Below, in pieces: positions 10,717 to 11,601 of a DNA stretch of 64,000 nucleotides; within the stretch, counting starts at the first letter, position 1, and the number at the start of each line of letters is the position of its first letter. The position numbers and the translations under genes were made by a program. This DNA comes from Escherichia coli (GTDB lineage: Bacteria; Pseudomonadota; Gammaproteobacteria; Enterobacterales; Enterobacteriaceae): NCBI RefSeq assembly GCF_003018255.1, contig NZ_CP027440.1, one strand, 5' to 3'. The notes under the pieces were generated by a model. It was not told where the DNA came from. It worked only from the letters and a program-made list of their open reading frames with translations, and ran no database searches.

Positions 10717-11601
10717 ATGAGAACAGGATGTGAACCGACCCGATTTGGTAATGAAGCAAAGACCATCATCCAGGGTGATGCATTAACCGAACTTAAAAAG
10801 ATCCCCGCCGAAAGTGTAGATCTGATCTTTGCCGACCCACCGTATAACATCGGTAAAAATTTTGATGGTCTGATCGAAGCCTGGAAAGAAGATCTGTTTA
10901 TCGACTGGCTGTTTGAAGTGATTGCAGAGTGCCACCGCGTTCTGAAAAAGCAGGGCAGCATGTACATCATGAACAGCACGGAAAACATGCCCTTTATCGA
11001 TCTCCAGTGCCGCAAGCTTTTTACCATCAAAAGTCGCATCGTCTGGTCATATGACAGTTCTGGAGTGCAGGCGAAAAAACACTACGGCTCCATGTACGAA
11101 CCCATCCTGATGATGGTGAAAGACGCAAAGAACTACACGTTCAACGGTGATGCTATTCTGGTAGAAGCCAAAACCGGATCGCAGCGCGCGTTGATCGATT
11201 ATCGCAAAAATCCTCCACAGCCTTACAATCATCAAAAAGTACCGGGTAACGTCTGGGATTTTCCGCGCGTGCGTTATTTGATGGATGAATATGAGAATCA
11301 CCCGACGCAAAAACCGGAAGCCTTACTGAAACACATTATTCTCGCCTCTTCCAACCCAGGCGATATCGTTCTCGACCCGTTTGCCGGTAGCTTTACTACC
11401 GGTGCCGTAGCCGTCGCCAGTGGGCGAAAATTCATTGGTATTGAGATCAACAGCGAGTACATCAAAATGGGGCTTCGACGGCTGGATGTCGCGTCGCATT
11501 ACTCTGCGGAAGAACTGGCGAAAGTGAAAAAAAGAAAGACCGGCAACCTGTCAAAACGAAGCAGGTTAAGCGAAGTTGACCCCGATCTCATTGCAAAGTA
11601 A
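10717..11601 (+). CDS. yhdJ: Orphan N6-adenine DNA methyltransferase YhdJ
   Basis: 294 aa from ATG 10717 (a GTG two codons upstream is an alternative start); catalytic DPPY motif in FADPPYNIG; no restriction partner adjacent. Confidence 0.92.
   Translation: MRTGCEPTRFGNEAKTIIQGDALTELKKIPAESVDLIFADPPYNIGKNFDGLIEAWKEDLFIDWLFEVIAECHRVLKKQGSMYIMNSTENMPFIDLQCRKLFTIKSRIVWSYDSSGVQAKKHYGSMYEPILMMVKDAKNYTFNGDAILVEAKTGSQRALIDYRKNPPQPYNHQKVPGNVWDFPRVRYLMDEYENHPTQKPEALLKHIILASSNPGDIVLDPFAGSFTTGAVAVASGRKFIGIEINSEYIKMGLRRLDVASHYSAEELAKVKKRKTGNLSKRSRLSEVDPDLIAK

Follow-up and report, generated by a model that had tools for sequence, protein, structure and literature searches.

It has long been asked what keeps a silent or weakly active orphan methylase in virtually every Escherichia coli, Salmonella and Citrobacter genome, and the question is raised again by yhdJ, which lies next to fis in a 64,000-nucleotide stretch of E. 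coli DNA (contig NZ_CP027440.1, assembly GCF_003018255.1; the whole stretch is hereafter called the window). An original prediction, made from the letters of the window, had named this gene, described it as a solitary N6-adenine methyltransferase in a core locus and called its physiological role poorly defined. We find that yhdJ encodes the orphan methyltransferase M.EcoKII, that it looks like the domesticated remnant of a Type II restriction-modification (R-M) system, and that its expression appears to be weak and passive. We give this joint account a probability of about 0.9.

yhdJ encodes an orphan beta-class N6-adenine methyltransferase

The open reading frame (ORF) is E. coli yhdJ, and its product, M.EcoKII, is an orphan beta-class DNA N6-adenine methyltransferase that depends on S-adenosylmethionine (AdoMet). 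Over its full length (residues 1–294 on profile positions 1–294), the protein matched the NCBIfam equivalog for YhdJ, NF008572 (PRK11524), with 585.4 bits against a cut-off of 292, and it matched the Pfam family N6_N4_Mtase (PF01555) over profile positions 1–218 of 221 (E = 2.7e-63; 214.3 bits against a gathering cut-off of 26.7). Together with the DPPY motif, these matches bear out both the gene name and the enzyme class that had been proposed. The protein is identical to K-12 YhdJ (b3262) at 289 of 294 residues (98%), and the intergenic region between fis and yhdJ is base-for-base the same as in K-12. The two are the same gene with the same neighbours and the same equivalog, and the window allele differs by five substitutions, one of which, R206H, is rare. 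Further orthologues of M.EcoKII are M.EcoGVI, M.EcoMVI, M.EcoST101III and Salmonella YhdJ. The gene, its start and its motifs lie as follows.

10717–11601, plus strand: yhdJ (M.EcoKII) coding sequence, 294 amino acids, ATG start and TAA stop, 885 nucleotides including the stop
10705–10711, plus strand: Shine-Dalgarno-like AAGGGAG, 5 nucleotides 5' of the yhdJ ATG, read from the sequence
10834–10845, plus strand: DPPY codons (amino acids 40–43), catalytic motif IV, invariant in 83 aligned homologues and aligned with the DPPY of CcrM
11380–11403, plus strand: FAGSFTTG codons (amino acids 222–229), AdoMet-binding motif I, C-terminal to motif IV

Motif IV, the target-recognition region and motif I follow one another in the order of the beta class, collinear with CcrM, M.MboIIA and M.RsrI. 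The start codon agrees with the RefSeq annotation in near-identical genomes. An in-frame GTG at 10711 was also considered as the start and is not credible, as it overlaps the Shine-Dalgarno sequence and leaves no spacing for one.

The surrounding gene order in the window is prmA-dusB-fis-yhdJ-yhdU-acrS-acrEF, with acrS on the minus strand, and dusB-fis-yhdJ-yhdU-acrS is a fixed neighbourhood in E. coli, so that yhdJ is also a positional orthologue, lying between fis and yhdU/acrS. Of 5426 complete E. coli genomes, 5425 contained the 1.6-kb fis-yhdJ-yhdU segment, nearly always as one chromosomal copy, which upholds the description of yhdJ as a gene that adjoins fis (10335–10631) in a core locus. 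In the Citrobacter and Salmonella loci, yhdJ stands in the same arrangement between fis and acrS.

10335–10631, plus strand: fis coding sequence, 98 amino acids, last gene of the dusB-fis operon (Pfam HTH_8, E = 1e-14; NCBIfam Fis equivalog, 180.9 bits against 99; RefSeq)
11685–11864, plus strand: yhdU (DUF2556), 59 amino acids, downstream neighbour (PF10831, E = 4.3e-36; RefSeq annotation)
11867–12529, minus strand: acrS/envR, TetR-family repressor, right-hand boundary of the locus (Pfam TetR_N and TetR_C_2; annotation)

The annotated genes within ~9 kb of yhdJ are all housekeeping genes (csrD, yhdH, accBC, yhdT, panF, prmA, dusB, fis, yhdU, acrS, acrEF and amino-acid ABC transporter genes). 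We also searched with a hidden Markov model (HMM) built from 40 cognate restriction enzymes, that is, enzymes encoded beside YhdJ-like methylases elsewhere, which in other loci picks up frameshifted fragments down to E = 4e-9. With this model, the 64-kb window gave no match in any of its six frames (best E = 4.2), and neither did 23 enteric loci (best E = 2.4). The claim that no restriction endonuclease or specificity subunit lies adjacent to yhdJ agrees with both the annotation and this search. The same six-frame search of the window and the 23 enteric loci ruled out yhdU, or other downstream DNA, as the remnant of a restriction gene.

A partner encoded elsewhere would make YhdJ the modification half of a working R-M or other defence system. 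As would be expected on that explanation, the protein is matched best in PADLOC by a model for Type II methylases (PDLC03299, E = 2.2e-154), and linkage to restriction enzymes is seen among its relatives. However, no signal of the cognate enzyme was found in the window or in the enteric loci, the neighbours are housekeeping genes, and deletion or 4-bp disruption of yhdJ is harmless, which would be unexpected if a cognate endonuclease were active. We consider a distant partner extremely improbable, and within the window it is effectively refuted. A complete Type II R-M system is not what this locus holds, since the endonuclease is absent and yhdJ can be disrupted without harm in both K-12 and Salmonella; lacking a cognate endonuclease, YhdJ is not a defence system.

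The relatives of YhdJ are linked to restriction enzymes

The origin of this orphan is suggested by its relatives, which we scanned using one genome per species. The upper tier of homologues (77–98% identity) was confined to Escherichia, Citrobacter and Salmonella, and all of its members lie between fis and acrS. The next tier (58–71% identity) comprised methylases of Pseudoalteromonas, Marinobacterium, Anabaena/Nostoc, Prochlorococcus, Pseudomonas and many Bacteroidota, and there the methylase gene is abutted or overlapped by a conserved ORF of 345–395 amino acids that has no Pfam match and that corresponds to the PADLOC REase_II model PDLC03455 (E = 1e-61 to 3e-138). By HMM, with frameshifted copies counted, this restriction enzyme adjoins the YhdJ-like methylase in 49 of 56 non-enteric loci, and it is absent from the other seven (L028, L030, L032, L035, L060, L069 and L075). 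In several loci, frameshifts or stops have broken up or shortened the restriction gene (L026 at 4868–5926, L049 at 4737–5975, L053 at 4987–5975, L061 at 4779–5963 and L076 at 4752–5273). The non-enteric loci in which the restriction gene is broken or missing have the appearance of independent steps, some intermediate and some final, towards orphan methylases.

In a plasmid collection, tblastn located this enzyme on small plasmids from E. coli, Klebsiella and Enterobacter, of which several are mobilizable and of the ColE1 type. Among the 72,556 records, no more than 5 enterobacterial plasmids had the system. Its layout consists of a controller gene for a 69-amino-acid helix-turn-helix (HTH) protein, a Type II restriction enzyme of 343 amino acids and a convergent methylase gene. 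Examples on E. coli plasmids are as follows.

NZ_AP027820.1 (p2017.15.02CC_2, L082), 1972–4107: plasmid R-M system
NC_025058.1 (pEC22, L083), 2771–4906: plasmid R-M system

The plasmid methylases are 74–75% identical to the YhdJ of the window, and 74–77% over the catalytic core. In RefSeq the plasmid methylase is itself named 'yhdJ', and the restriction enzyme goes by 'hypothetical protein' in some of the records. Neighbour-joining recovered the enteric chromosomal clade as monophyletic (97/100) and the plasmid methylases as its sister group (100/100), with both nested among methylases linked to restriction enzymes. The controller-restriction-modification (C-R-M) systems on plasmids of Enterobacteriaceae, as well as the homologous systems in Pseudoalteromonas, Anabaena/Nostoc and Bacteroidota, thus have a methylase akin to YhdJ together with a convergent or co-directional restriction enzyme of 343–395 amino acids (PDLC03455), to which the plasmids add the 69-amino-acid HTH gene, whereas the chromosomal yhdJ locus has neither gene and no remnant of one.

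Read parsimoniously, this pattern suggests that yhdJ looks like the domesticated remnant of a Type II R-M system. In the ancestor of Escherichia, Salmonella and Citrobacter, such a remnant would have come to fixation between fis and acrS, and the endonuclease gene would have been lost when, or soon after, the methylase settled beside fis. The papers that we read contain no statement of the kinship between yhdJ and the plasmid R-M systems, yet orphan methylases are well known to arise by this kind of route. The literature on EcoT22I and pEC22 yielded nothing on the recognition sequence of the plasmid system. We take the ATGCAT enzymes NsiI, AvaIII and EcoT22I to be a plausible likeness for the plasmid and non-enteric systems, as unconfirmed candidates only.

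Methylation activity and the consequences of losing yhdJ

The specificity and activity of YhdJ are described in the literature. When overexpressed, YhdJ modifies ATGCAT at its second A, giving ATGC(m6A)T, and protects DNA from NsiI (PMC4444293; PMC13337833), and the same specificity has been predicted for its homologues in sequence types ST131 and ST101. By homology to the characterised K-12 enzyme (98% identity), the M.EcoKII of the window would flip out and methylate the second adenine of this palindrome on both strands. Of the seven ATGCAT sites in the window, one falls in yhdJ itself, towards its 5' end at 10778–10783 (codons GGT GAT GCA TTA, G-D-A-L); it is probably incidental, and the Salmonella study lists no ATGCAT in its yhdJ (PMC9239280).

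In K-12, yhdJ is silent and nonessential, and its deletion or 4-bp disruption gives no phenotype (PMC4444293; PMC13337833). In strain ER2796, where the gene is intact, all 1644 candidate adenines were unmethylated, and SMRT (single-molecule real-time) sequencing showed no K-12 activity (PMC4444293). Inactivity of the enzyme has been reported for other E. coli too, and the ATGCAT methylation motif went undetected in three natural E. coli isolates. Salmonella YhdJ is natively active: it methylates about 513 ATGCA*T sites, and at all of them the methylation is lost in a yhdJ deletion (PMC9239280). Only 61% of the Salmonella sites were methylated in one growth stage or more, and mid-exponential cells had more methylated sites than cells in late stationary phase (bioRxiv 2026.01.27.702048). 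The comparison of methylomes between the wild type and a yhdJ deletion or overexpression strain, which had been proposed as a check, is therefore essentially in the literature already. The view of yhdJ as a gene of poorly defined role is borne out, although with its specificity, a Salmonella methylome and deletions all published, it is better characterised than that wording implied. It is an already characterised, ordinary core gene: earlier work named and cloned it, determined its specificity and deleted it, and methylomes with and without it are in print.

Among the methylation motifs of Salmonella, ATGCAT is the most condition-dependent (PMC9239280; bioRxiv 2026.01.27.702048). Taken with the conservation of this orphan and its syntenic position beside the global regulator fis, this would fit an epigenetic regulator of transcription or the cell cycle, like CcrM or Dam, that acts under some condition. 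CcrM of Caulobacter (PDB 6pbd) is also the best solved-structure match to YhdJ (E = 1.8e-31, residues 10–265); the two proteins have in common the beta-class N6-adenine fold and the DPPY and HPTQKP motifs, and both are orphans. The likeness ends with the methyltransferase domain, however. The alignment to 6pbd stops at CcrM residue 267, beyond which a basic tail of ~30 amino acids remains in YhdJ, and YhdJ is without the linker and the C-terminal, non-specific DNA-binding domain of 88 residues, which CcrM activity requires (PMC6787082). Its score against the CcrM equivalog NF050803 was 132.5 bits, below the cut-off of 830. YhdJ is 'CcrM-like' at the level of this domain only: CcrM methylates GANTC and regulates the cell cycle, whereas YhdJ methylates ATGCAT and has no known regulon.

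The phenotypes of Salmonella likewise speak against a regulatory role. Deletion of yhdJ changed the expression of 12 genes in lysogeny broth (LB) and 0 in medium inducing Salmonella pathogenicity island 2 (SPI-2), only one of the genes having a methylated site, and the phenotypes in growth, motility, macrophages and mice were negligible (PMC9239280). Differential methylation of ATGCAT sites was not associated with expression changes (bioRxiv 2026.01.27.702048). As the gene is moreover nonessential and silent in K-12, we regard YhdJ as very unlikely to be such a regulator.

A different reason for keeping the gene would be that it acts as a genomic 'vaccine', in which methylation of ATGCAT guards the chromosome from attack by plasmid R-M systems with that specificity, or from post-segregational killing once such a plasmid is lost. 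Complete C-R-M systems with a sister methylase (74–75% identical) do circulate on mobilizable plasmids of E. coli, Klebsiella and Enterobacter, yhdJ is kept in 5425 of 5426 genomes despite the lack of a regulatory phenotype, and the authors of the Salmonella study speculate on a role in phage defence (PMC9239280). There is also a precedent in Dcm, for which the same role against EcoRII has been shown (cited in PMC11602122). Like YhdJ, Dcm is an enteric core orphan methylase, kin to a mobile R-M system of the same specificity (M.EcoRII), and its host range has been described as similar to that of yhdJ (PMC4444293). Dcm belongs to the C5-cytosine family, however, and is constitutively active on CCWGG, whereas the activity of YhdJ is undetectable in K-12.

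This lack of activity is one of several points against the explanation. K-12 and several other E. coli have no detectable ATGCAT methylation under the conditions tested, and protection would be absent there unless it were induced, and methylation that reaches only ~61% of the Salmonella sites in one growth stage or another would be insufficient against an endonuclease. That the specificity of the plasmid enzyme matches ATGCAT is an assumption only, and few enterobacterial plasmids (5 among the 72,556 records) have the system. We consider the explanation unlikely.

yhdJ follows the fis terminator with no room for a whole promoter in between

The original prediction had placed yhdJ 85 nucleotides after the fis terminator. 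This figure instead measures the spacer between the fis stop codon (10631) and the yhdJ ATG (10717), and the terminator lies inside that spacer.

10656–10692, plus strand: fis intrinsic terminator, with a GC-rich hairpin at 10656–10691 and a T-tract at 10687–10692 (fold of -29.5 kcal/mol, z = -3.07)

A simple terminator scan missed this element because its loop exceeds the 8-nucleotide limit of the scan. The terminator core was invariant in 15 sequences of Escherichia, Salmonella and Citrobacter, and the spacer on both sides of it was variable. From the end of the T-tract to the yhdJ ATG there are 24 nucleotides, too few for a whole promoter to fit between the terminator and the start codon. 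A scan for promoters, which covered sigma-70 consensus sites only, found none on the plus strand from 10250 to the yhdJ ATG. The only matches on this strand were inside yhdJ (11441) and before yhdU (11619), and the overall count of matches in the scan equalled the shuffle expectation. With a strong, invariant terminator and no recognisable sigma-70-like promoter upstream, read-through or a non-canonical promoter is left as the source of yhdJ transcripts. We infer that expression is weak and passive, with yhdJ mRNA most likely arising from read-through of the terminator of the growth-phase-regulated dusB-fis operon, or from a non-canonical promoter overlapping the 3' end of fis.

Read-through of this kind would explain both the silence of yhdJ in K-12 and the partial, exponential-phase-biased methylation in Salmonella. 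The expression pattern of fis is known, and the mid-exponential bias of methylation in Salmonella matches it. Sequestration of the Shine-Dalgarno sequence by a hairpin (GUCAC-AAAGGGA-GUGAC, 10699–10715) was considered as another cause of silence and rejected, as the translation-initiation region folded no more stably than shuffled sequences (z = +1.23) and the hairpin is unconserved in Salmonella and Citrobacter.

Some observations weigh against our account. When dusB-fis was deleted in strain CSH50, yhdJ mRNA was not significantly changed relative to the engineered control (PMC4751926); this control carries a cat cassette between fis and yhdJ, so that the comparison is not a clean test of read-through (PMC4751926). 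The terminator is also identical in E. coli and Salmonella, and so it alone cannot explain why native methylation is seen in Salmonella only. Lastly, and of concern for the window strain itself, the R206H substitution changes an otherwise invariant residue and may reduce or abolish the activity of the enzyme.

The terminator region gave two further observations. With an A-tract upstream and a T-tract downstream, the terminator could in principle act in both directions. Rfam returned nothing above threshold on the fis-yhdJ spacer. A sub-threshold match to the Salmonella small RNA candidate STnc40 lay at 10625–10692 (25.6 bits against a gathering threshold of 45, E = 0.24); covering the fis 3' untranslated region (UTR) and the terminator, it may be due simply to the conserved terminator, or it may point to a 3' UTR-derived fragment.

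A rare allele at residue 206

The five differences between the YhdJ of the window and that of K-12 are H19Q, A24T, R206H, I233V and T293A. The third of these falls within the conserved HPTQKP..LL.R helix that directly precedes motif I.

11332–11334, plus strand: His206 codon CAC (CGC in K-12), rare allele

Arginine occupies this position in 82 of 83 aligned homologues from Proteobacteria, Cyanobacteria and Bacteroidota, the exception being the histidine of the window, and it is also found at the equivalent position in CcrM and in PDB 8urk. The exact 61-mer around codon 206 occurred in 2 of 5396 E. coli genomes. One of the two, strain C21, has H206 on another yhdJ allele, which differs at 18 nucleotides, so that H206 may be recurrent or have been moved by recombination. 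The nearest overall yhdJ allele (99.9% identical) has Arg206.

This raises the question of whether the window strain has a crippled or inactive enzyme, encoded by a gene that looks intact and is decaying. Besides the invariance of Arg206 and the rarity of the variant, the tolerance of yhdJ loss would be in keeping with decay, as deletions have no phenotype and most strains of S. Paratyphi A carry a truncation at codon 151 (PMC9239280). On the other hand, histidine keeps some positive charge, and in the CcrM structure paper (PMC6787082) we found no residue-level role for the arginine equivalent to R206. The occurrence of H206 on two allele backgrounds argues against a sequencing error and is silent on function. 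Judged from sequence comparison, impairment through R206H is possible, though we lean against it.

Variation and composition of the locus

Not all genomes carry the locus in full. In 37 of the 5425 E. coli genomes, less than 80% of the 1.6-kb fis-yhdJ-yhdU query was covered, and an internal 61-nucleotide segment of yhdJ was missing from 30 of the 5426 genomes, which suggests that yhdJ is occasionally disrupted or deleted in natural isolates. One E. coli genome has, in addition, a plasmid copy of the fis-yhdJ-yhdU segment. The product of the downstream neighbour, YhdU, gave a weak match to the PADLOC model for KwaA (E = 0.003, 15.5 bits), most likely a chance resemblance of small membrane proteins. 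In one paper, the CpxR-responsive genes include yhdU and, in one condition, yhdJ.

The window holds 7 ATGCAT sites, against 23 expected from dinucleotide composition and 11.0 expected from an order-4 Markov model. We rejected avoidance of ATGCAT as a trace of restriction pressure, as TTCGAA, GAGCTC, GCATGC and AAGCTT are similarly depleted and 64 kb offers too little power.

Implications for the retention of yhdJ

The observations on relatives and on expression can be combined into one proposal, in which yhdJ is kept as immunity to ATGCAT-specific ColE1-type plasmid systems and, having no promoter of its own, would be expressed in step with growth by read-through of the fis terminator. We hold this proposal to be improbable, but its parts can be tested. 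The sister relation of yhdJ to complete R-M systems on plasmids of the same hosts opens an anti-addiction role to testing, and the lack of room for a promoter of its own after the invariant fis terminator does the same for expression by read-through. The rare natural R206H allele is a ready-made probe of structure and function in this widely kept orphan methylase.

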